Origin: Candidatus Moraniibacteriota bacterium | GTDB taxonomy: Bacteria; Patescibacteriota; Minisyncoccia; Moranbacterales; GWC2-37-73 | Length of the DNA stretch: 64,000 nucleotides | Assembly (NCBI GenBank): GCA_013336225.1 | Contig: JAAXUC010000001.1 | Coordinates: forward strand, 35,949 to 99,948 | Reading direction: 5' to 3' | Shown here: positions 2,014 through 52,160 of the stretch, piece by piece | Layout: each line of letters starts with the position of its first letter | Position numbering within the stretch: position 1 is the stretch's first letter | Notes under the pieces: generated by a model | Database searches by the model: none | What the model was told of the DNA's origin: nothing | What the model saw: only the letters and a program-made list of their open reading frames with translations | Made by a program: the position numbers and the translations under genes

Positions 2014-3447
2014 ATGTTGGAAATTTTTAAGAATGGTAGCAAATTGCTAGGCATGAATGCTCGCAATTTGGATTACATTCGTCCATACAATCGAAAAAAG
2101 GCAAAAAAATTGGCAGATGACAAGATTTTAAGCAAACGCATGCTTAAAAAAGGTGGAATCCCTGTGCCAAAATTGCTTGCGAAAATACGAACCGCTGAGG
2201 AATTGGAAAATTTCGATTGGTCTTCTTTGCCGAGCACATTTGCGCTTAAACCAAATCGTGGCTATGGCGGTGGCGGAATCATGGTTGTTTATGGTCGCAA
2301 AAAACTTTCACGCAAAGAAATTGCCAACACTGAGGACGGCGAAACACCTTTACCAGTCTGGGTGAAATCAGATGGCGGCAAAGTTACAGTGGAAGATTTG
2401 AAAAGTCATATTCTAAACATTCTCGATGGTGCTTTTTCACTTGCAAACATGCCTGACATTGCTTTTTTTGAAGAACGCCTGACATTGCTGAAACTTTTCA
2501 AGCCGTATGCCTACAAGGGGATTCCTGATATTCGTGTGATTGTGTTCAATCGCATTCCGGTGATGGCCATGCTTCGTTTGCCAACCAAGGAATCTGGCGG
2601 CAAAGCAAATTTGCAACAAGGTGGAATTGGAGTCGGAATTGATTTGGCAACAGGTGTGACCACCACGGCTGTTTTGGGTAAGGGGAAGATTATTGATTAT
2701 GTGCCTGGCACTCGCATGCTTCTTTCTGGAATCAGAATTCCATATTGGAAAGAAATGTTGCTGCTTGCCGTGAAAGCACAAGAAATCTCAGGAATGGGCT
2801 TTTTGGGTGCTGATGTGGCAATTGATCGTGTGCGCGGCCCGGTCTTTTTGGAAATTAATGCGCGTCCAGGACTTTCAATTCAAGTTGCAAACCTTAGTGG
2901 ACTTAAAGAAAGACTTGAGCGCATCAAAGGTCTTAAGATTAAAACAGCTGTGCGCGGCGTACGTGTGGGCAGAGATCTTTTCGGGGGTGAAATTGAGGAA
3001 GAATTGGAGGAAATTTCTGGACGAAAAGTGATTGGCACAATTGAAAAGATAAGACTTATTGGAAAAAATGGAAAATCTGTTGAACTTGAAGCAAAAATTG
3101 ATACCGGGGCTGGATTCACTTCTATCGACACTGATCTTGCTGAAAAACTTGGTTTTGAAGATACAGTGAGGGAATATCAAAAAATTGAAACCACCTATAA
3201 AGATATTAAGCATTTAAGTAAAACAGAGCGCTGGAACATTTATAAGCATATTCCAAATCTGGAAAGCACTGTGGTTGTCAATTCTGCAAGTGGAAGCACT
3301 TACCGTCCTACCATTAAAATTACTGTCATTATGGATAACGTTATCATTCCAACAAAGGTAACATTGATCAATCGTGCACACTTGAAATACCCAATAATTA
3401 TTGGGAAAAGAAATCTGAAGAAATTTTTAATTGATGTTTCAAAATAA
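2014..3447 (+). CDS. Alpha-L-glutamate ligase-like ATP-grasp (RimK-related) fused to a C-terminal retropepsin-like aspartic protease domain (DUF785, the so-called putative ATP-dependent zinc protease)
   Basis: The N-terminus (KLLGMNARNLDYIRPYNRKKAKKLADDKILSKRML...GIPVP) resembles the alpha-L-glutamate-ligase-like family, and the ATP-grasp core is visible (FLEINARPGLS). The C-terminal part carries a D-T-G-A aspartic protease motif (KIDTGAGFTSID). Confidence 0.7.
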   Translation: MLEIFKNGSKLLGMNARNLDYIRPYNRKKAKKLADDKILSKRMLKKGGIPVPKLLAKIRTAEELENFDWSSLPSTFALKPNRGYGGGGIMVVYGRKKLSRKEIANTEDGETPLPVWVKSDGGKVTVEDLKSHILNILDGAFSLANMPDIAFFEERLTLLKLFKPYAYKGIPDIRVIVFNRIPVMAMLRLPTKESGGKANLQQGGIGVGIDLATGVTTTAVLGKGKIIDYVPGTRMLLSGIRIPYWKEMLLLAVKAQEISGMGFLGADVAIDRVRGPVFLEINARPGLSIQVANLSGLKERLERIKGLKIKTAVRGVRVGRDLFGGEIEEELEEISGRKVIGTIEKIRLIGKNGKSVELEAKIDTGAGFTSIDTDLAEKLGFEDTVREYQKIETTYKDIKHLSKTERWNIYKHIPNLESTVVVNSASGSTYRPTIKITVIMDNVIIPTKVTLINRAHLKYPIIIGKRNLKKFLIDVSK

Positions 3448-4399
3448 TATGAAAAATATTGTCATCATGTATGCTGGTGATGATTGGAAAAAAGAAATTC
3501 CAATCACGAATGATGGTACTAGGATTGCCATCCAGGACTGGATGATTCGAGCTGGGAAAATTAGGGTAAATCTCTACCGCGCAAGTATGAAATGGTATGA
3601 TTTAGAAAAAAATGTTTTCACAAAGGCTTGGTTTTTTAAGGATGGAATTTGGCAAAGATGCGAAAATGAGATTGAGCCAGATATGATTTATGATAAGGTT
3701 TTAAGTAAATATGATTATTCCTTACTGGATTTTAAATTAAAAATAGCTCAAAAAACACTGCTTTTCAATTCACCGCTTTTTCGTGCAACATTCAATAACA
3801 AATTATCTCAATATGTGATGTTTGGAGAATTTATGCCTTTTTCTCAAATTGCAAATAATAAAAAAGAATTCGAAAATTCAATAGCAAAAAGTGGGTCTGA
3901 AAAAATCGTAGTGAAGCCACTATATGGTTCTGGAGGTTTTGGTATTTTTATTGGTGGAAAGAAAGAAGCCTTAATGGAAGATTACAATTTTCCTGTCTTG
4001 GTGCAAGAATTTATTCTAAGCGAAAAAGGTATTCCTGGAGTTTCTAAAAATAATGAAGTTGCAGATCTCAGGTTGGTTTTTCAGGGAGGAAAGTTGGCTT
4101 ATGCACTTTCCAGAATTGCTGCTGACGGATCATTGTTTACCAATCTGCATCAAGGCGCAACAGGAAAAATGATTGCTGGTGAAGATATTCCAGAAAGCAT
4201 AACTGAAATGGCAAAAAAGATTAATAGCAAGATTTCAGTTTTTCAAAATGCTCAATATTCCTTGGATTTTATTTTTGATAATAGTGGGAGGCCATATTTT
4301 ATTGAAATGAATACGACACCAGGCATTGATTTGGTCACGCTCTTGGCTGATGAAAAAACAAAACAAGAAAATTTTGAATCCATAAGCGAACTGTTGTAA
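3431..4399 (+). CDS. ATP-grasp superfamily ligase (second ATP-grasp gene of the cluster). The start overlaps the upstream gene and may instead be the ATG at 3449.
   Basis: ATP-grasp motifs are present: KIVVKPLYGSGGFGIFIG and PYFIEMNTTPGIDL. There is no clear RBS, and the sequence is AT-rich. Confidence 0.6.
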   Translation: MMFQNNMKNIVIMYAGDDWKKEIPITNDGTRIAIQDWMIRAGKIRVNLYRASMKWYDLEKNVFTKAWFFKDGIWQRCENEIEPDMIYDKVLSKYDYSLLDFKLKIAQKTLLFNSPLFRATFNNKLSQYVMFGEFMPFSQIANNKKEFENSIAKSGSEKIVVKPLYGSGGFGIFIGGKKEALMEDYNFPVLVQEFILSEKGIPGVSKNNEVADLRLVFQGGKLAYALSRIAADGSLFTNLHQGATGKMIAGEDIPESITEMAKKINSKISVFQNAQYSLDFIFDNSGRPYFIEMNTTPGIDLVTLLADEKTKQENFESISELL

Positions 4400-5433
4400 T
4401 GAAAAATGAAAATTTACGTATCGCTATTGTGGCACCACCTTTTGGCGACACTGGAGGTCCTGAGGTTGTCACGCAAAATTTGACAGATGCTTTCTTAAAT
4501 ATGGGCGTGGACGTGACATTGTTTGCGCCAGCTGATTGGAATACAAGAGCAAAACATATTCCTACATTAGGAAAAAGCATTCAGAATATGACAAAAGCTG
4601 AAAAAAGCGATATCTCAAAACTTCGAATTGAGAGTCAAATGAAAGTGGTGGAATTTGCTGAAAATTTTGATATCATTCATTTTCATAGTCAACGTGAAGC
4701 TGCTAGTGTTGCAAATAAAATAAAAAATCCTTGCGTTGTTTCATTTCACAATAGAATTTCGCAGGACGTTTTTGATGGAGCCTTGGCAGCTGGCTTGTAT
4801 ACTGTGGCACTTAGCCAAAATCAAAGAGGGAATCTTAAGACATCTGCAATTATCTACAATGGGGTTCCTATGCGGAATATAAAATATTCATTCGAAAAAG
4901 GAGAGTATCTAATGTTTGTAGGCAGATTGAATGATCAAAAAGGCATAGATACAGCAATTGAAATTGCGATAAAGGCCCATAAAAAATTGTTCATTTTTGG
5001 TAGGATTGGCAATACGTCTGAAAGAAAAAAGTTTTTTGCTGAAAAAATAGAACCATTCTTAAATGATAACATTATATATAAAGGAGAAGTTGATCATAGT
5101 GAGATATATGAGTTTTTGAGAGGTGCTGAAGCATTGCTTTTCCCAATAAGGAGACCGGAGGTTTGTCCTATGGTTGTGGCAGAAGCTTTGGCGTGCGGCA
5201 CGCCAATAATTGGAACTACTATTGGGCCATTGCCAGAACTTTTGCGCAGTAAAAAAATTGCATTTCTTTCTGATCATATAGATGAGTTGGTCGAGGCTGT
5301 TCAACACACTGATCGTTTTGATAGGACAGAATGCAGGAAATATGCTCAAGATAATTTTGATAGCATTGTTATGGCTAAAAAATATTTGGATCTTTATGAT
5401 AAAATTATAAAAAATACTAATCATACCACATAG
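4399..5433 (+). CDS. Glycosyltransferase family 4 (GT-B fold)
   Basis: GT4 signatures are FVGRLNDQKGID and EVCPMVVAEALACGTPIIG. The start overlaps the upstream stop (TAATG), indicating an operon. Confidence 0.75.
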   Translation: MKNENLRIAIVAPPFGDTGGPEVVTQNLTDAFLNMGVDVTLFAPADWNTRAKHIPTLGKSIQNMTKAEKSDISKLRIESQMKVVEFAENFDIIHFHSQREAASVANKIKNPCVVSFHNRISQDVFDGALAAGLYTVALSQNQRGNLKTSAIIYNGVPMRNIKYSFEKGEYLMFVGRLNDQKGIDTAIEIAIKAHKKLFIFGRIGNTSERKKFFAEKIEPFLNDNIIYKGEVDHSEIYEFLRGAEALLFPIRRPEVCPMVVAEALACGTPIIGTTIGPLPELLRSKKIAFLSDHIDELVEAVQHTDRFDRTECRKYAQDNFDSIVMAKKYLDLYDKIIKNTNHTT

Positions 5434-19661: not shown

Positions 19662-19730
19662 GGAGGGGTCGCAGTGTGGGCCGAATGCGAAGAACATGAG
19701 CATTCGGCGGGTTTCAAAAGAAACCCTGGC
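19662..19730 (+). other. tRNA-Ser-like 5' fragment (acceptor 5' strand GGAGGGG plus D-arm-like region), followed by a GAGCATTC-containing hairpin
   Basis: GGAGGGGTCGCAGTGTGGGCCGA parallels the 5' end of the intact tRNA-Ser (GGAGAGGTCGCATAGTGGTCGAG). It is preceded by the palindrome AACATGACTATGTCATGTT at 19641-19659. Confidence 0.4.
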
Positions 19731-19823: not shown

Positions 19824-19910
19824 GGAGAGGTCGCATAGTGGTCGAGTGCACCACCTTGGAAAGGTGGCATACTGTCAAAGGTATCGGAGGTTCGAATCCT
19901 CTCCTCTCCG
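19824..19910 (+). tRNA. tRNA-Ser (anticodon GGA), long variable arm, no encoded CCA
   Basis: Manual fold: acceptor GGAGAGG/CCTCTCC, D-arm GCAT..GTGC, anticodon stem CCACC/GGTGG with loop TTGGAAA, variable arm CATACTGTCAAAGGTATC, and T-loop TTCGAAT. Confidence 0.85.
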
Positions 19911-19923
19911 CTTTGAAACTAAA

Positions 19924-20103
19924 AAGGTGGCATACTTTAAACGGTATCGGAGGCTGTAAATTATAAAGAGCAAATGATTTTGCTAATTATAATTTACAGC
20001 GCCAGAGCAATTTTTCGTCAGCAGACAAAAATGCGAGGCGGTGGCCAGACAAATTTTTGTGGCGACAAAAATTTAGTCGAGACCGAATCCTCTCCCCTCC
20101 GCC
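19924..20103 (+). pseudogene. tRNA-Ser 3' fragment spanning anticodon-loop 3' side, variable arm, T-arm and acceptor. It is interrupted in the T-loop by an insert of about 130 nt, and its acceptor strand CCCCTCC is complementary to the 5' fragment at 19662.
   Basis: AAAGGTGGCATACTTTAAACGGTATCGGAGG matches the intact tRNA at 28 of 31 positions. After the insert, the sequence resumes with GACCGAATCCTCTCCCCTCCGCC. Confidence 0.5.
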
Positions 20104-20120
20104 TTTAAAATTAAAAAATT

Positions 20121-35741: not shown

Positions 35742-35813
35742 TACCCTCAGCAGGAATCGGACCTACATAACAAGCTTAGAAGGCTTGTGTTCTATCCATT
35801 GAACTATGAGGGC
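35742..35813 (-). tRNA. tRNA-Arg (anticodon TCT)
   Basis: Reverse complement GCCCTCATAGTTCAATGGATAGAACACAAGCCTTCTAAGCTTGTTATGTAGGTCCGATTCCTGCTGAGGGTA. D-stem GTTC/GAAC, anticodon loop CTTCTAA. Confidence 0.8.
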
Positions 35814-35829
35814 AAGTCCTCCCTAAAAA

Positions 35830-35989
35830 AGGATGTGGGTTATGCAGGATTTCTGCTCGCTCCGACTCGCAGCCTGGGTGCTACGCACAGAATGCTCGTA
35901 TTCCTCGCATCCTACTCGCACCCTTCGAATCTTTGCATATTTTAAATATTTTTTAAAAACTCTAAAAATAAAGAATTTTTAAAAAAATG
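35830..35989 (-). repeat. tRNA-Lys-associated mini-element. A GC-rich core of about 90 nt with a GAGCATTC box is bounded on one side by the intact tRNA-Lys 3' end and on the other by a 19-nt direct repeat of it (ATGTGGGTTATGCAGGATT on the + strand).
   Basis: The 19-nt identity between 35833-35851 and 35988-36006 was read directly. The arrangement is the attL/attR-like signature of insertion at a tRNA 3' end. Confidence 0.55.
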
Positions 35990-36062
35990 TGGGTTATGCA
36001 GGATTCGAACCTGCGACCGTCGGCTTAAGAGGCCGCTGCTCTACCAACTGAGCTAATAACCC
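35990..36062 (-). tRNA. tRNA-Lys (anticodon CTT)
   Basis: Reverse complement GGGTTATTAGCTCAGTTGGTAGAGCAGCGGCCTCTTAAGCCGACGGTCGCAGGTTCGAATCCTGCATAACCCA. It closely parallels canonical bacterial tRNA-Lys. Confidence 0.85.
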
Positions 36063-36125
36063 AAATTTTTAATAACTAGCCAAGTATAGCAGGTTTCTTG
36101 TGGTTAGTCAATCGGATAAAAAGGC

Positions 36126-44094: not shown

Positions 44095-44431
44095 AAAATC
44101 CATATGATGCGGATGTTGCAATCTTTGTGGTGATGATGGGATTGCCAAAACATTGTCCAGAAATTGTTGATCAATTAAAGACTGGAGCATTTAAGACTGG
44201 GGCTGAAATTGATGATGTTCTGTTTGCTGGAAGCATATATCTGAGAAACCTTATTTTTGAAGAATTAGGTTTTAGTCTTAATGATTTGGATAAGAAAAAA
44301 ATGGAAACCAAGAAATGATACTTGTTTACAGAAAGAATAAGAAAAGAGCCTTTGGTGATTTCTCCAAAGGCTCTGATTTTATAATGATTGAGATGTCTTT
44401 TTAGACGGTTCTTGTTTCATCTCCTGTGTTT

Positions 44432-44698
44432 TCATCTGAATATGTAGTGAGTGAAAAAATCCTGCATGAAAGTCTGCTTGTTTACGAAATACCATGTTAC
44501 CCACATTATTGCACTTGCAGTGATGAAGCAAGCAACAAACAGCATGGCAATCAAATGTTCTATCTCTCTTGCGTTTGCCATCATTAATGTGCCAGCGATA
44601 ATGAAAATGACTGTCAGCATGACCAAAATCGTCGTTTGAAGGAAATATCCGAATACAAATCCGAGTACTATGAGAACTGGCCAGATAATTACTTCCAT
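44432..44698 (-). CDS. Hypothetical small membrane protein (88 aa, 3 TM)
   Basis: A hydrophobic ORF downstream of, and convergent with, the ECF sigma gene. Confidence 0.4.
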   Translation of the reverse strand: MEVIIWPVLIVLGFVFGYFLQTTILVMLTVIFIIAGTLMMANAREIEHLIAMLFVACFITASAIMWVTWYFVNKQTFMQDFFTHYIFR

Positions 44699-44728
44699 AC
44701 TCTTATCCTTTCTTGGGTGTGATGTTTT

Positions 44729-45076
44729 TTACAATGAAGCCATGCAGATTGCAGAGAAAAACTCTTTGAGAAATTCCTTTTTGATATACACCCAGATCAT
44801 TCCCATGCGGTTCGTGAGTTGAATACTGATGTAGCCGTTTTTCGTGAACAGGGTGCTACGAAGTTGATCATGAATGATAATGCCAATATCGGTCGAAAAT
44901 TTCTCCAGCATTTCATTTACTCTTCCGTACGAAACCCTCTGAAGCACAAACGGAACGGACACATCATTTACAACCAACTCTCCTGATTTCATGGTACTTG
45001 TCAGTTTATTGCCATCTTTGAGATTTTTGATACAAAAACTGTCTCCCCGTGGTTGACTTTGAATTTGCAGTTTCAT
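44729..45076 (-). CDS. Hypothetical protein (115 aa)
   Basis: An ORF with no recognisable motifs. Confidence 0.4.
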   Translation of the reverse strand: MKLQIQSQPRGDSFCIKNLKDGNKLTSTMKSGELVVNDVSVPFVLQRVSYGRVNEMLEKFSTDIGIIIHDQLRSTLFTKNGYISIQLTNRMGMIWVYIKKEFLKEFFSAICMASL

Positions 45077-45185
45077 TTGCGTGCTCCTTTTTAGCTTAAA
45101 ATAGCTGCTGATTTGAATTGTTAAACAACGTGAAATATTAGCATACTTTGCCTAATTAGTCAATGTTTTTATAGAGTGTGGCGCC

Positions 45186-45371
45186 AAGGAGAATTTGCGC
45201 GTCGTTTTCTGCTAAAAACTCCTTGTCCGCGGCAGCGCTAAATGCTCGCTCGCTCTCATTTATCGGCGTTCGATTATTCGCCTTCGCTCATATCTCACTG
45301 CTGCCGAGTCCGATTCTCATGGCGCTAGACAAATTTAAAAGCCATCATTACTGATGACTTTTAAAAATTTG
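45186..45371 (+). repeat. tRNA-associated GC-rich element B, MITE-like. Its terminal inverted repeats are copies of the tRNA-Glu T-arm/acceptor 3' end, the core carries AAATGCTC and CGGCGTTCG boxes, and a short hairpin follows. It abuts tRNA-Glu.
   Basis: The left end TGGCGCCAAGGAGAAT and the right end GAGTCCGATTCTCATGGCGCTA (reverse complement TAGCGCCATGAGAATCGGACTC) both mimic the tRNA-Glu 3' end (GGAGTCCGATTCTCCTTGGCGCTA). The core 45230-45330 aligns with element A 35390-35500 and with 52085-52142. Confidence 0.55.
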
Positions 45372-45443
45372 TAGCGCCAAGGAGAATCGGACTCCTGTTA
45401 CCAGGATGAAAACCTGGTGTCCTAACCACTAGACGATGGCGCC
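45372..45443 (-). tRNA. tRNA-Glu (anticodon TTC)
   Basis: Reverse complement GGCGCCATCGTCTAGTGGTTAGGACACCAGGTTTTCATCCTGGTAACAGGAGTCCGATTCTCCTTGGCGCTA. It parallels canonical tRNA-Glu. Confidence 0.85.
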
Positions 45444-45566
45444 ATTAGAAATAGCTTCTAGGCTTTAGCTTCTTAGCTTTTTAGAAAAAACGCTAGGAAA
45501 TGCTATAAAACGGTAACAAGAGATAGTTTAGCATAAATAAAAAATAAATCAAGGGGGTGCGCTTCC

Positions 45567-51959: not shown

Positions 51960-52031
51960 GCGGGTGTCGTATAGTGGCTATTATATCAGCCTTCCAAGCT
52001 GAGGAGGGGAGTTCGATTCTCCCTACCCGCT
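51960..52031 (+). tRNA. tRNA-Gly (anticodon TCC)
   Basis: GCGGGTG...TCAGC-CTTCCAA-GCTGA-GGAG-GGGAG-TTCGATT-CTCCC-TACCCGC-T; it parallels canonical tRNA-Gly. Confidence 0.85.
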
Positions 52032-52043
52032 CAAAATGATGAA

Positions 52044-52070
52044 ATCTCAAGTCTTAGGACTTGGGATTTT
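52044..52070. terminator. Terminator hairpin shared by tRNA-Gly and the convergent repeat element
   Basis: ATCTCAAGTCTTAGGACTTGGGATTTTTT. Confidence 0.55.
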
Positions 52071-52084
52071 TTCGTTTTTAACAT

Positions 52085-52142
52085 GGGTAGGGAGAATCGA
52101 ACTCGGCAGCAGTTAGATATGCGTGAAGGCGAATAATCGAGC
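52085..52142 (-). repeat. Partial copy (3' portion, about 58 nt) of the tRNA-associated element, ending in an inverted mimic of the tRNA-Gly T-arm/acceptor
   Basis: The reverse complement GCTCGATTATTCGCCTTCACGCATATCTAACTGCTGCCGAGTTCGATTCTCCCTACCC aligns almost base-for-base with element B, CGATTATTCGCCTTCGCTCATATCTCACTGCTGCCGAGTCCGATTCTC... Confidence 0.55.
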
Positions 52143-52160
52143 TATTGAAAGATGCATGAC

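Follow-up and report, generated by a model that had tools for sequence, protein, structure and literature searches.

Small non-coding units with tRNA-derived arms behind tRNA genes of Candidatus Moranbacteria, including a candidate insertion cassette at tRNA-Glu

Integrative elements in tRNA and tmRNA genes were reportedly classed by Williams in 2002 by their sublocation, in the T-loop or at the 3' end. The classic att signature of tRNA-integrating elements is a direct repeat of the tRNA end. Tandem islands are reported at ssrA in Dehalococcoides (PMC3146451). The locus analysed here resembles tRNA- and tmRNA-integrating islands in its tRNA 3' target, its intact tRNA and a displaced direct repeat of 14-19 bp that reaches from the T-loop to the gene end. 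It belongs to a family of short units that recur with the same anatomy, obey an orientation rule, form arrays, possess a covarying core and are present or absent at an orthologous site.

The window, that is, the whole stretch of DNA analysed, comprises 64,000 nucleotides of a Candidatus Moraniibacteriota contig. The unit designated Element B lies next to a tRNA-Glu(TTC) gene on the minus strand (45371/2-45443; ARAGORN and Rfam, 61.6 bits), whose 3' end is copied in both arms of the unit. The distal (left) arm, X'a (45176-45194, plus strand), was defined by repeat comparison of 45166-45194 with 45359-45387 and is a direct repeat of the 3' end of the tRNA-Glu gene as it reads on the plus strand. 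Specifically, it contains the trailer, the 3' strands of acceptor and T-stem and the final three T-loop bases, and its homology to the tRNA ends at T-loop position 57/58. The segment GCGCCAAGGAGAAT (45181-45194) is identical over 14 nt to 45374-45387 at the gene end, and these are the only two exact occurrences of the 14-mer in the 64-kb window, where ~0.45 matches are expected by chance even with up to two mismatches allowed. By inspection, the repeat extends to 18/19 over 45176-45194, so that 2-3 tRNA trailer bases are included. The first-pass annotation had described this end as a 16-nt inverted copy of the tRNA-Glu 3' end. It is indeed a copy of that end, with 14 rather than 16 exact nucleotides, and it is inverted relative to the right arm but direct relative to the tRNA gene.

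The proximal (right) arm, X (45306-45330, plus strand), is an inverted copy of the 3' portion of tRNA-Glu, recognised by inverted-repeat comparison (13/13). Three bases from the 5' strand of the T-stem are followed in it by the T-loop TCCGATT, by the 3' strands of T-stem and acceptor, and by discriminator and trailer. Its first part, GAGTCCGATTCTC (45306-45318), is complementary at 13/13 positions to 45382-45394, and after a one-base indel relative to the tRNA it runs on as ATGGCGCTA to 45327, in agreement with the 22-nt inverted tRNA-Glu copy (45306-45327) proposed from the first pass. None of the 29 non-cognate tRNAs in the data set matches this arm equally well. No tRNA was called within 45176-45330 by ARAGORN or Rfam. 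A tRNA with an intron or a pseudo-tRNA was rejected as a reading of the unit, which has no tRNA call and no 5' half; the left arm passes into the complement of the 3' strand of the T-stem rather than into a D arm.

The hairpin AAAAGCCATCATTACTGATGACTTTT (45337-45362) separates the element from the tRNA; it is terminator-like on both strands and has an intrinsic-terminator score for the tRNA strand. The coordinates of arm, hairpin and tRNA thus agree with the architecture recognised at the outset, in which tRNA-derived inverted arms flank a shared core and are followed by a hairpin and then by the real tRNA-Glu on the opposite strand. Together, the proximal arm, the hairpin and the tRNA gene 3' end form a long imperfect palindrome (45306-45394). 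With 89 nt and ~38 pairs, it replaces the stem on a 100-bp scale that had been postulated between the element end and the tRNA end. As DNA, the palindrome folds with -35.4 kcal/mol (z = -11), a value reached in 0/200 shuffles.

Proximal arm, trailer and hairpin are continuous as one palindrome centred on the hairpin loop, as would be expected of a replication-error by-product at the tRNA terminator, in which a snap-back or template switch at the hairpin copies the tRNA end in inverted orientation, with no further element biology. The T-loop sequence TTCGAA is itself palindromic and could be the switch point. We attach hardly any probability to this account. It explains at most the upkeep of the match between the proximal arm and the local tRNA, and leaves unexplained the covariation of the core, the spread over tRNAs and genomes, the distal repeat and the arrays with different hairpins. 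Moreover, an arm with no history of a core was never seen: the tRNA-Asn gene of the window and two relatives of the tRNA-Glu site (L035 and L038) have no inverted arm.

The arms enclose a conserved structured core of the variant subfamily B (45195-45305, with the minus, tRNA-sense strand as the preferred folded strand), defined by nhmmer and covariation. The nhmmer match spans 45198-45306 (E = 2.7e-17), and the subfamily-B profile gives E = 7e-30. The core family folds into a hairpin P1 and a three-way junction made up of P2, P3 and P4, with a near-invariant CTCCTTG between them that stays single-stranded and reads AAGGAG on the strand of the tRNA. In plus-strand coordinates, the window copy has TTGCGCGTCG at 45195-45204, P1 with the loop CTGC at 45204-45219, the invariant CTCCTTG at 45219-45225, P2 at 45230-45237 paired with 45298-45306, P3 at 45239-45262 and a short P4 region at 45264-45296.

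Across 24 distinct copies of the family, 96.6% of the cells are paired, compared with 81.5% in shuffles, and double (compensatory) changes occur in 24 of 33 pairs, a level reached in 0/500 shuffles; slid controls are 35-43% paired. The consensus fold of subfamily B, with the window copy included, has 29 pairs, 14 of them with compensatory changes. The hairpin loop CAGCAG is kept in subfamilies A and B, within different helices. As to the fold anticipated for the unit as a whole, the palindrome does fold strongly (z = -11), whereas the single-sequence fold is unexceptional (z = -0.9, -0.5); the complete set of unit folds gave z = -0.9, -2.8, +0.2 and -0.5. The evidence for structure is the covariation across copies.

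G:U-type pairs number 46 on the tRNA-sense strand and 6 on the other strand, a comparison in which the tRNA-sense strand is purine-rich and the cells are not independent events; with a structure derived from both strands, they number 43 and 11, subject to the same confound. In 21/23 copies, the tRNA-sense strand has the lower minimum free energy. The G:U-type pairs thus point to the tRNA-sense strand as the folded strand, in a test that is partly confounded. The core may work as RNA or as single-stranded DNA, and both were considered. A dependence of the folded strand on replication direction was rejected: GC skew is positive across the window, and the elements follow the orientation of the tRNA on both strands.

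A host-functional non-coding RNA gene could account for such conservation. The structured RNA would be read from the tRNA strand, by terminator read-through or from an unrecognised promoter, and the helix closing its arms would form a minihelix of the cognate acceptor and T-stem. This RNA might act on tRNA biology, for instance on RNase P, RNase Z, the CCA-adding enzyme or a tRNA-targeting nuclease, to which it would present itself as a substrate mimic or a decoy; alternatively, its exposed AAGGAG might act on ribosomes or on an RNA-binding protein. Copies would have spread by local duplication and gene conversion, with no dedicated mobility. The strong covariation, the G:U bias to the tRNA-sense strand, the nearly invariant single-stranded motif and the CAGCAG loop kept across subfamilies A and B are all consistent with this. 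At orthologous tRNA-Tyr loci, the hairpin and the outer arm drift, whereas conservation of the core roughly equals that of the flanking tRNAs. Furthermore, pairing of the arms would restore the 12-bp acceptor/T helix of the tRNA because the arms are mutually complementary.

The minihelix is not maintained, however, and the acceptor part or one arm has been lost in many copies. A terminator-like hairpin stands between tRNA and core, often with another after the unit, and no promoter was found. Several unrelated-looking cores (type 2, type 3 and an insert at tRNA-Ser) use the same arm architecture, and occupancy varies among close relatives, in which the site can be empty. A host RNA is a possible but doubtful explanation.

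Other RNA-based readings were discarded. In Rfam 15, only tRNAs reach the gathering score, with no core match at gathering or E-value thresholds, and relaxed scans of 45100-45500 and 35200-36100 gave only spurious long-hairpin, miRNA-like matches to the palindrome. Support in Rfam is thus absent for a tmRNA-like or YrlA-like RNA, a ribozyme or an omega- or bridge-type guide RNA, and the window has no TnpB, IscB or IS110 gene; likewise, group I introns and HEARO/omega RNAs have no covariance-model match. A small ORF behind AAGGAG was rejected, as its start codons and frames are unconserved and the region covaries as a hairpin. A promoter seen by eye upstream of the Glu unit (TTGCCT-N16-TATAGA) was missed by the promoter scan, and elsewhere a terminator abuts the distal arm.

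The 64-kb window holds five or six such units or remnants. One is a sister unit at tRNA-Arg(TCG) (35334-35540, plus strand; tRNA gene 35545-35619, minus strand). Its distal arm, GTGCGCT, is 7 nt long (35334-35340) and its type-1 core is full-length (35360-35482; nhmmer E = 1.1e-34); the proximal arm GGTTCAAGTCCCTCATCGCTACA (35482-35504; 15 nt exact, matched as well by 0/29 other tRNAs) and a hairpin (35510-35535) follow. Beside it lies the remnant of an older Arg-type unit (35283-35328, plus strand), in which the core is absent and an orphan proximal arm (35283-35306; 24 nt, 87.5% identical to the Arg arm) is followed by a hairpin (35310-35328). A truncated subfamily-B unit at tRNA-Gly (52042-52153, plus strand; tRNA gene 51960-52032, plus strand; profile E = 3.6e-05) consists of a hairpin (52042-52069), an inverted arm matching at 20/20 positions (52085-52104) and ~49 nt of core (52104-52153), the remainder being absent. 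The sharing of the core with the Arg and Gly elements, as first proposed, is borne out by nhmmer for the Arg unit and by 49 nt at 92% for the Gly unit.

Two further units differ in their interior. The unit at tRNA-Lys (35833-35939, plus strand; tRNA gene 35989-36062, minus strand) is of a short type, type 3, with the 19-nt distal arm ATGTGGGTTATGCAGGATT (35833-35851), the proximal arm TTCGAATCTTTGCATA (35924-35939) and a core of ~73 nt that retains the P3 hairpin (weak profile match in P3). The same core type occurs at tRNA-Glu in L031, L032 and L041. The unit at tRNA-Ser (19922-20104, plus strand; tRNA-Ser 19824-19911) is related but atypical. Positions ~37-53 of tRNA-Ser are copied directly at its start; then come a hairpin, an insert of ~85 nt containing a hairpin whose loop is UCAGCAGA, and finally a copied tRNA-Ser 3' end (20083-20104).

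In genomes and metagenomes of Candidatus Moranbacteria, which are very small uncultured bacteria, the core family was found 3' of tRNA-Tyr, Gln, Pro, Gly, Trp, Glu, Arg and Lys. The core-pattern search yielded 9 loci in Moranbacteria or Parcubacteria genomes and 13 metagenome loci; matches at L008, L012, L016, L021, L027, L029 and L030 were dismissed as chance matches in GC-rich coding DNA. All ~40 core copies with a tRNA on the same contig are convergent to that tRNA at a distance of ~60-75 nt, with a hairpin in between, and arrays of two or three units occur. The units measure 150-250 bp, with a core of 70-150 nt and no conserved ORF. In L014-Gly, L010-Gln, L018-Trp, L032 and L033, the order is that of a single insertion: a hairpin that looks native is followed by the 15-19-bp repeat, the core, the inverted arm, a new hairpin and the tRNA. 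No description of the family was found in the literature searched and Rfam contains no match, in line with the initial view of a recurrent repeat-like unit that had not been described; the family is apparently undescribed so far. The distal direct repeat, the arrays, the covarying core on the tRNA strand and the presence or absence among relatives go beyond the first-pass annotation.

The proximal arm of the family is an inverted tRNA copy from about position 51-54 to beyond the 3' end. In the Gln, Arg, Pro, Gly and Glu units, the cognate tRNA matches it better than all 26-29 others, with up to 22 consecutive bases. In most copies, the distal arm is a direct tRNA repeat that extends from T-loop position 56-58 to 1-3 bases beyond the 3' end. 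Its length ranges across copies from 12 to 19 nt, repeats of 14-19 bp being present in the window (45176-45194), L010, L014, L031, L032 and L036. Because the 1-3 trailer bases are present and CCA is absent, the distal repeat copies the gene and not the mature tRNA. An origin from mature-tRNA cDNA, by analogy with a retroviral primer-binding site and a stop at m1A58 (the distal arm starts at A58), was rejected on the same trailer bases in place of CCA. Nearest-neighbour cores often lie at different tRNAs, and near-identical cores have different arms. For example, by inspection, the cores at tRNA-Tyr (L002) and tRNA-Pro (L005) of one MAG have derived substitutions in common.

The initial caveat that the tRNA-end similarity might be a coincidental local duplication, lacking from other copies of the core, does not hold; most full-length copies carry the T-loop/T-stem of their own tRNA on the tRNA-proximal side. 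Among the copies, those at tRNA-Tyr keep a generic T-loop only, and one tRNA-Trp copy deviates.

We compared the orthologous tRNA-Glu/DedA site on eleven other contigs, two of which do not reach far enough to include it. On the others it is empty, occupied by one or two cassette-like units of different core types or occupied by a larger insert. Specifically, L035 is empty, with the hairpin present and the arm absent, and L038, in which the tRNA-Glu orientation is opposite, has the hairpin only. L032 and L041 have one short type-3 unit each, L031 has a type-3 unit and a remnant, L033 has one type-1 unit, L036 has two units and the window has its subfamily-B unit. The direct repeat allows two phasings of the inserted segment, core-arm-hairpin-repeat and repeat-core-arm.

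The larger inserts bear on the idea that the units are scars of integrase-bearing elements, such as phages, plasmids or islands, that entered the tRNA 3' end and were reduced to attP arms. tRNA-Glu is a hot spot for larger inserts: in L034, a gene for a 503-aa large serine recombinase abuts tRNA-Glu and the core is absent, and in L037, the insert adjoining the tRNA includes a gene read as HTH/excisionase-like. The direct repeat of the tRNA end also has the form of the classic att signature. Reduction of this kind would, however, need identical deletion end points repeatedly at many tRNAs, and compensatory evolution of the core helices would be unexpected for decaying arms. In a single viral-contig scan, the core pattern gave a chance match only, and serine recombinases are not known to create 15-19-bp repeats. 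Scars are a very unlikely explanation. An attP/attB pair of a large serine recombinase with crossover at the T-loop CG was rejected; the adjacent arms that it predicts at one junction are absent, and the junctions are not consistently CG. By inspection, they read ..GGRATT|T.. or ..GAATC|...

The first-pass annotation had called Element B MITE-like, and the inverted arms, the short non-coding sequence and the presence of several copies per genome are in accord with that description. A classical MITE would have tRNA-3'-end-like terminal inverted repeats bound by a transposase encoded elsewhere, and gene conversion or palindrome correction would later have brought its arms into line with the adjacent tRNA. 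The arms of L018-Trp, which agree with each other and deviate from the resident tRNA at 5 positions, look like carried ends. In addition, the window hairpin (45337-45362) differs from that of the empty L035 site at 1/26 bases, so that a repeat-core-arm block could be the insert; this near-identity fits repeat-core-arm phasing, or a donor that is a close relative. The MITE description fails in other respects. No target-site duplication outside the arms was seen by inspection at the window Glu unit, L010, L014, L018 or L032. The arms vary by locus and usually match the local tRNA, tracking even the rare T-loop variants TCCGATT (Glu) and TTCAAGT (Arg). Their inner limits are unequal (58 for the distal arm, about 52 for the proximal arm). 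The distal arm is missing from several intact copies, being absent or replaced in the Tyr units and in internal units with the left end TTGCCAAGTG, and none of the core copies found lies away from a tRNA end. We consider a classical MITE improbable.

The reading that we put forward, with evenly balanced confidence, is that Element B is a subfamily-B copy of small, non-coding, non-autonomous insertion cassettes specific to tRNA 3' ends in Candidatus Moranbacteria (CPR/Patescibacteria). A cassette, probably in the form of a small circle, would enter by recombination inside the tRNA 3' segment with an enzyme supplied in trans, and entry would leave the tRNA intact together with a displaced copy of the tRNA end. 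Successive entries would stack into arrays with the newest unit adjoining the tRNA. The cis-acting site would be the palindrome, the folded core or both, read on one strand, either as single-stranded DNA, as in integron attC, or as RNA made by read-through from the tRNA. Cores would be swapped among tRNA loci and arms re-templated from the local tRNA, with homology boundaries that probably fall within the universally conserved T-loop. Scans of 40 window ORFs and of the genes adjoining arrays revealed no recombinase, transposase or reverse transcriptase.

Several observations run counter to the cassette reading. Neither an enzyme nor a circular or excised form was seen. A simple carried attP fails for cores of one subfamily at many tRNAs, and a re-templating step is required. 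The L018-Trp arms differ from the resident tRNA, and several copies have no distal arm. Finally, the terminator-like hairpins that flank the core argue against strong transcription; a host-useful RNA, on the other hand, would also be compatible with the long-standing conservation of the fold.

A bolder version of the cassette reading, which we regard as rather unlikely, is an integron-like system with any tRNA 3' end as its docking site. Small circles with a folded, strand-specific core and a palindrome imitating the duplex of the target tRNA end would be inserted and excised either by a recombinase that reads structure or by a route that needs no recombinase and is guided by the folded nucleic acid, and the arms would be re-templated via the T-loop; or else the units would be expressed, one for each tRNA operon, as RNAs of a new class that mimic tRNA minihelices.

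If the cassettes are mobile, they represent a new lifestyle for a very small selfish element in a streamlined genome, one that parks behind an essential conserved gene, spares that gene with its own copy of the tRNA end and a terminator, and relies on structure rather than on a gene. How the ends of such an element are rewritten to match each new target would become open to testing. The core also provides a new, well-supported fold motif, a three-way junction with an invariant AAGGAG/CTCCTT strand and no Rfam counterpart, in a phylum whose RNA biology is poorly known. In practice, short-read assemblies seem to break at tRNA loci because of these units (contigs L001 and L040 stop at the locus or within it), and leftover partial tRNA copies can confuse annotation.

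Several known systems share single features with the cassettes. Like the self-splicing insertions in tRNA anticodon loops of the same phylum, they are structured, non-coding and tRNA-associated; unlike these, they are situated outside a tRNA that stays intact, fall below the size of a group I intron and have no Rfam group I match. As in the tRNA-like domains of tmRNA and YrlA/Y RNA, pairing of the 5' and 3' ends on either side of a large insertion would restore an acceptor/T-type helix, but there is no ARAGORN tmRNA or Rfam match, the 5' strand of the T-stem is not conserved as such and the helix is lost in many copies. REPINs (RAYT) and palindromic elements of the IS200/IS605 family are likewise non-autonomous, hairpin-forming, strand-specific and lineage-inherited, with the enzyme elsewhere. 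In contrast to them, the cassettes have target-derived arms and occur at tRNA ends only, with no RAYT or TnpA seen and no conserved tetranucleotide cleavage motif. Bacterial MITEs (Correia/NEMIS, ERIC, RUP, BOX) are also short, non-coding and present in many copies, have inverted ends and lie in intergenic regions beside terminators, where long transcript hairpins are possible. The cassettes, however, have no target-site duplication and are strictly associated with tRNA 3' ends and oriented to them; their ends match the neighbouring tRNA instead of being constant, and their interior helices covary.

The islands that integrate into tRNA and tmRNA genes likewise form tandem arrays by repeated entry and leave sites occupied or empty in relatives. 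Unlike an island, a cassette of 150-250 bp has neither an integrase nor any other gene; it has an extra inverted copy of the tRNA end and a hairpin, and a covarying core takes the place of cargo, one core family serving many tRNAs.

Integron cassettes differ in their entry point, which here is the tRNA 3' end rather than attI, and in their palindromes, the arms of which are here copies of the target. No GTTRRRY or RYYYAAC core sites were seen by inspection at the junctions, and no integrase was found in the window or next to the arrays. The cargo is a conserved non-coding fold in place of an ORF, and recombination of the cassettes is putative. In comparison with attC, the palindrome that arm, hairpin and tRNA end make up has a strong fold, and the core helices are covarying and strand-biased. 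As in integrons and CALINs (attC clusters without an integrase), the units are small, promoterless, in one orientation and stacked at a fixed entry point, with the newest unit presumably next to the entry site, and as in attC, an imperfect palindrome keeps structure over sequence and folds on one strand.

The tRNA-Glu(TTC) gene of the window (45371-45443, minus strand) is accompanied by a unit in which a core (45195-45305) is bracketed by arms copied from that tRNA. Specifically, the 14-mer GCGCCAAGGAGAAT at 45181-45194 (plus strand) is repeated exactly at 45374-45387, where the plus strand carries the tRNA-Glu gene 3' end, and has no other exact match in the 64 kb scanned. By inspection, this left repeat extends to 18/19 over 45176-45194, and since it reaches 45176 it includes bases of the tRNA trailer. 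On the tRNA side of the core, GAGTCCGATTCTC at 45306-45318 is perfectly complementary to 45382-45394, followed by a one-base indel and then ATGGCGCTA to 45327. Read on the tRNA strand, the 45337-45362 hairpin is scored as a terminator; right arm, hairpin and tRNA-Glu end together make a single 89-nt palindrome (DNA fold −35.4 kcal/mol, z = −11). The parts described in the first-pass annotation (arms, hairpin, tRNA-Glu) are thus all present by repeat, fold, tRNA and terminator evidence. It had also read both ends as tRNA-derived inverted repeats, able to form a 100-bp-scale stem between element end and tRNA end; both arms exist, but the left one is a direct repeat of the tRNA-Glu gene end, and the DNA fold gives ~38 pairs instead.

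Between the sigma-70 gene and the Glu unit lies ~1.1 kb (44095-45180) that contains three small uncharacterised ORFs: first a plus-strand one, and after it two of 88 and 115 aa on the minus strand with a promoter TTGACT-17-TAATAT at 45163-45135. This stretch is absent from L035, a contig whose sigma-factor stop codon abuts the tRNA terminator, and may be an older, larger insert at the tRNA-Glu site. Two short-read contigs from public runs stop nearby, L001 ending at ~window 45291 inside the Glu unit and L040 starting inside tRNA-Glu, consistent with assembly breaks at a repeat.

A degenerate 27-nt pattern of the core, searched against species-representative genomes, metagenomes and viral sequences, gave nine true loci in the genomes and 13 in the metagenomes. 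The genome loci are labelled, as reported, Moranbacteria/Moraniibacteria (6), 'Parcubacteria group' (2) and 'uncultured bacterium' (2), and the G+C of the window (~39-40%) is typical of the CPR lineage that they name. The remaining matches, including the sole viral one, are chance hits in GC-rich coding DNA.

Profile search and tRNA annotation raised the family to about 40 core copies. Wherever the contig allows, core and tRNA gene (Tyr, Gln, Pro, Gly, Trp, Glu or Arg) are convergent, spaced 60-75 nt apart with a hairpin between, and arrays of two or three units are frequent. At four loci (L014 1400-2100, L028 2757-3100, L011 7243-7700 and L041 1700-2000) the partner tRNA is missing, cut to a few bases or uncalled by ARAGORN, indicating that units can outlive the tRNA they entered. 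The same arm architecture surrounds different cores. Subfamily B includes the window Glu and Gly copies, and a short type-3 core occurs in the window Lys unit, L031, L032 and L041. The type-2 core (L006 ~280-420, L014 ~1560-1700), which looks unrelated to the main core, has a long hairpin with two CCUCC stretches (GGAGGA on the tRNA strand) and then an A/T-rich hairpin, with the same kind of tRNA-derived arms and the same arrays.

In L028, ~2 kb (3062-5119) separates two Gly-type arrays of one orientation; it encodes three ORFs on the minus strand, of which one has a SET domain, and its borders are a 9-nt fragment of a tRNA-Gly end and an arm-like sequence. This stretch could represent either a protein-coding cassette within the array or ordinary chromosome lying between two arrays.

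The proximal arm, on the tRNA side, starts at tRNA position ~51-54, continues across the trailer and reaches into the hairpin, which makes it the mirror half of one long palindrome. In Gln, Arg, Pro, Gly and Glu units it matches its cognate tRNA better than any of 26-29 others, over up to 22 consecutive bases; in Tyr units a generic T-loop plus four bases is left. Most full-length core copies found elsewhere thus also have tRNA-derived ends, which speaks against reading the similarity at the Glu unit as a coincidental local duplication. The distal arm, where present (window Glu, window Lys, L006, L007, L010, L011, L014, L031, L032, L036), is a 12-19 nt direct repeat of the tRNA gene that stops at T-loop position 56-58. 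Because it includes 1-3 bases of the trailer but in no case CCA, it derives from DNA and not from mature tRNA. Single-unit loci (L014-Gly, L018-Trp, L032, L033) read older hairpin, repeat, core, inverted arm, new hairpin, tRNA; L010 stacks two units in this order with three unrelated hairpins. No target-site duplication was seen outside the arms at the loci inspected. L018-Trp is the one informative exception to arms that track the local tRNA: in their T-stem part its two arms match one another and differ from the resident tRNA at five positions, yet they share its acceptor end, which suggests a unit that came from another lineage with a crossover near the acceptor end. Candidate routes by which arms come to match each new tRNA are recombination through the conserved, partly palindromic T-loop, template-switch palindrome correction, and gene conversion from the adjacent tRNA.

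The window contains further units. That of tRNA-Arg(TCG) is full-length, with a type-1 core at 35360-35482 and, in its right arm, the unusual T-loop of the Arg tRNA, TTCAAGT; an older orphan arm with hairpin lies nearby (35283-35328). The tRNA-Lys unit (type 3, 35833-35939) repeats 19 nt of the tRNA-Lys gene end in direct orientation; the tRNA-Gly unit is truncated, with an inverted arm matching at 20/20. An atypical relative (19922-20104, plus strand) follows tRNA-Ser (19824-19911) and, unlike the other units, has no inverted arm. It consists of a direct partial tRNA-Ser copy (positions ~37-53), a 46-nt hairpin, an ~85-nt insert with hairpin loop UCAGCAGA, and a tRNA-Ser 3'-end copy, an arrangement that resembles a second 3' half of tRNA-Ser interrupted in the T-loop. 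Behind tRNA-Asn there is a terminator alone.

About 115 nt upstream of tRNA-Ser, between it and the pyruvate kinase gene, 19669-19709 (+) weakly matches the profile (E = 0.0014) in the core P3 hairpin region (GAATGC...GCATTC), and may be a remnant unit without partner tRNA.

The 40 window ORFs scanned are housekeeping genes (ValRS, TsaD, RsgA, primase, RpoD, RNR, PBP and others) or lack a Pfam match, with no recombinase, transposase or reverse transcriptase among them. All 4-kb bins have positive GC skew (0.03-0.21), which makes the plus strand the leading one across the whole window; where the skew dips, at 36-44 kb, the genes form a minus-strand block.

The orthologous tRNA-Glu/DedA locus was found through DedA homologues in eleven other contigs, two of which (L039, L040) end short of the site. 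In L035 the site is empty, reading sigma-factor stop codon, hairpin, tRNA-Glu, and the hairpin differs from that of the window at 1/26 bases; in L038 the hairpin alone follows a tRNA-Glu in opposite orientation. Units are present at the tRNA-Glu genes of L031 (one type-3 plus a remnant), L032 (single type-3), L033 (single type-1), L036 (two, the tRNA-adjacent one of subfamily B) and L041 (single type-3, its tRNA-Glu uncalled by ARAGORN and apparently decayed by reading). In L034 a gene for a 503-aa large serine recombinase (854-2399; Resolvase, Recombinase and Zn-ribbon domains) overlaps the tRNA-Glu 3' end by ~40 nt, exactly at the site used by the small cassettes elsewhere, and L037 has a larger insert adjoining tRNA-Glu that includes a gene read as HTH/excisionase-like. 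The differing occupancy indicates that the site is dynamic.

Nearest-neighbour comparison shows that core similarity does not track tRNA identity: the L017 Glu core is nearest to Tyr copies (92%), the window Arg core to Gln copies (89%), and the L014 Gly core to the L033 Glu copy (85%). By inspection, the L002 (Tyr) and L005 (Pro) cores of one MAG have derived substitutions in common. Together these indicate that cores move or convert between tRNA loci while arms stay local.

The tRNA-Thr(GGT) gene is intact in L003 (3919-3992), L009 and L013, and uncalled in L002 (1780-1900), L022 and L025, where the 5' half alone aligns and the break is read at the anticodon loop. The break could be a group I intron, as in PMC13011429, or another insertion.

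Taken together, the sequence comparisons favour a mobile, non-autonomous cassette that inserts specifically at tRNA 3' ends: position and orientation are strict, the gene end is present as a direct repeat, genes are absent, units with different hairpins stack into arrays, and orthologous sites are empty or differently occupied. A decayed tRNA is not favoured by position and orientation, gene-end repeat, arrays and variable occupancy.

The core has a conserved fold. Its consensus structure, built on 24 distinct full-length copies, comprises a hairpin P1, a near-invariant single strand CTCCTTG (CAAGGAG on the tRNA strand) and a three-way junction P2/P3/P4. Pairing holds in 96.6% of cells versus 81.5% in shuffles, and 24/33 pairs have changes on both sides, reached by 0/500 shuffles; sliding the partners by 1-3 columns leaves 35-43% pairing and 6-8 pairs with double changes. 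Subfamily B, including the Glu unit, has its own consistent fold (14/29 pairs compensatory, six sequences), with the CAGCAG hairpin loop at P1 instead of P4. Wobble-type pairs favour the tRNA-sense strand by 46 to 6 in the structure predicted from that strand and by 43 to 11 in the union of both strands' structures, and this strand folds better in 21/23 copies, although it is purine-rich and cells are non-independent events. Neither strand matched an Rfam family. The covariation and G:U bias suit a serious rival reading, in which the core is expressed as an RNA that serves the host and its closing helix mimics the acceptor/T helix of the cognate tRNA; terminators on both flanks, arms that are often lost on one side and patchy occupancy suit it less well. 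The cassette and RNA readings are compatible, because a mobile cassette could carry an RNA gene.

With respect to known systems, the long palindrome and the core, with its covariation and strand bias, resemble cis-acting structure; among described sites, an integron attC or the folded attP of CTX-type phages comes closest. Integron cassettes have the stacked, palindrome-bearing, promoterless design in common with the units, whereas attC core sites and IntI are lacking in the latter. tRNA-integrating islands share the target and the direct repeat, but the units have no integrase. MITEs, the class first proposed for the Glu unit, are similar in size and hairpin potential; that assignment is not supported, since the arms usually match the local tRNA and are not constant inverted repeats, and target-site duplication was not seen. 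No description of such units was found in the literature searched, the nearest paper concerning a different thing, group I introns inside Patescibacteria tRNA genes (PMC13011429). The units combine features of known mobile and structured elements, and there is a real chance that they are something more unusual.
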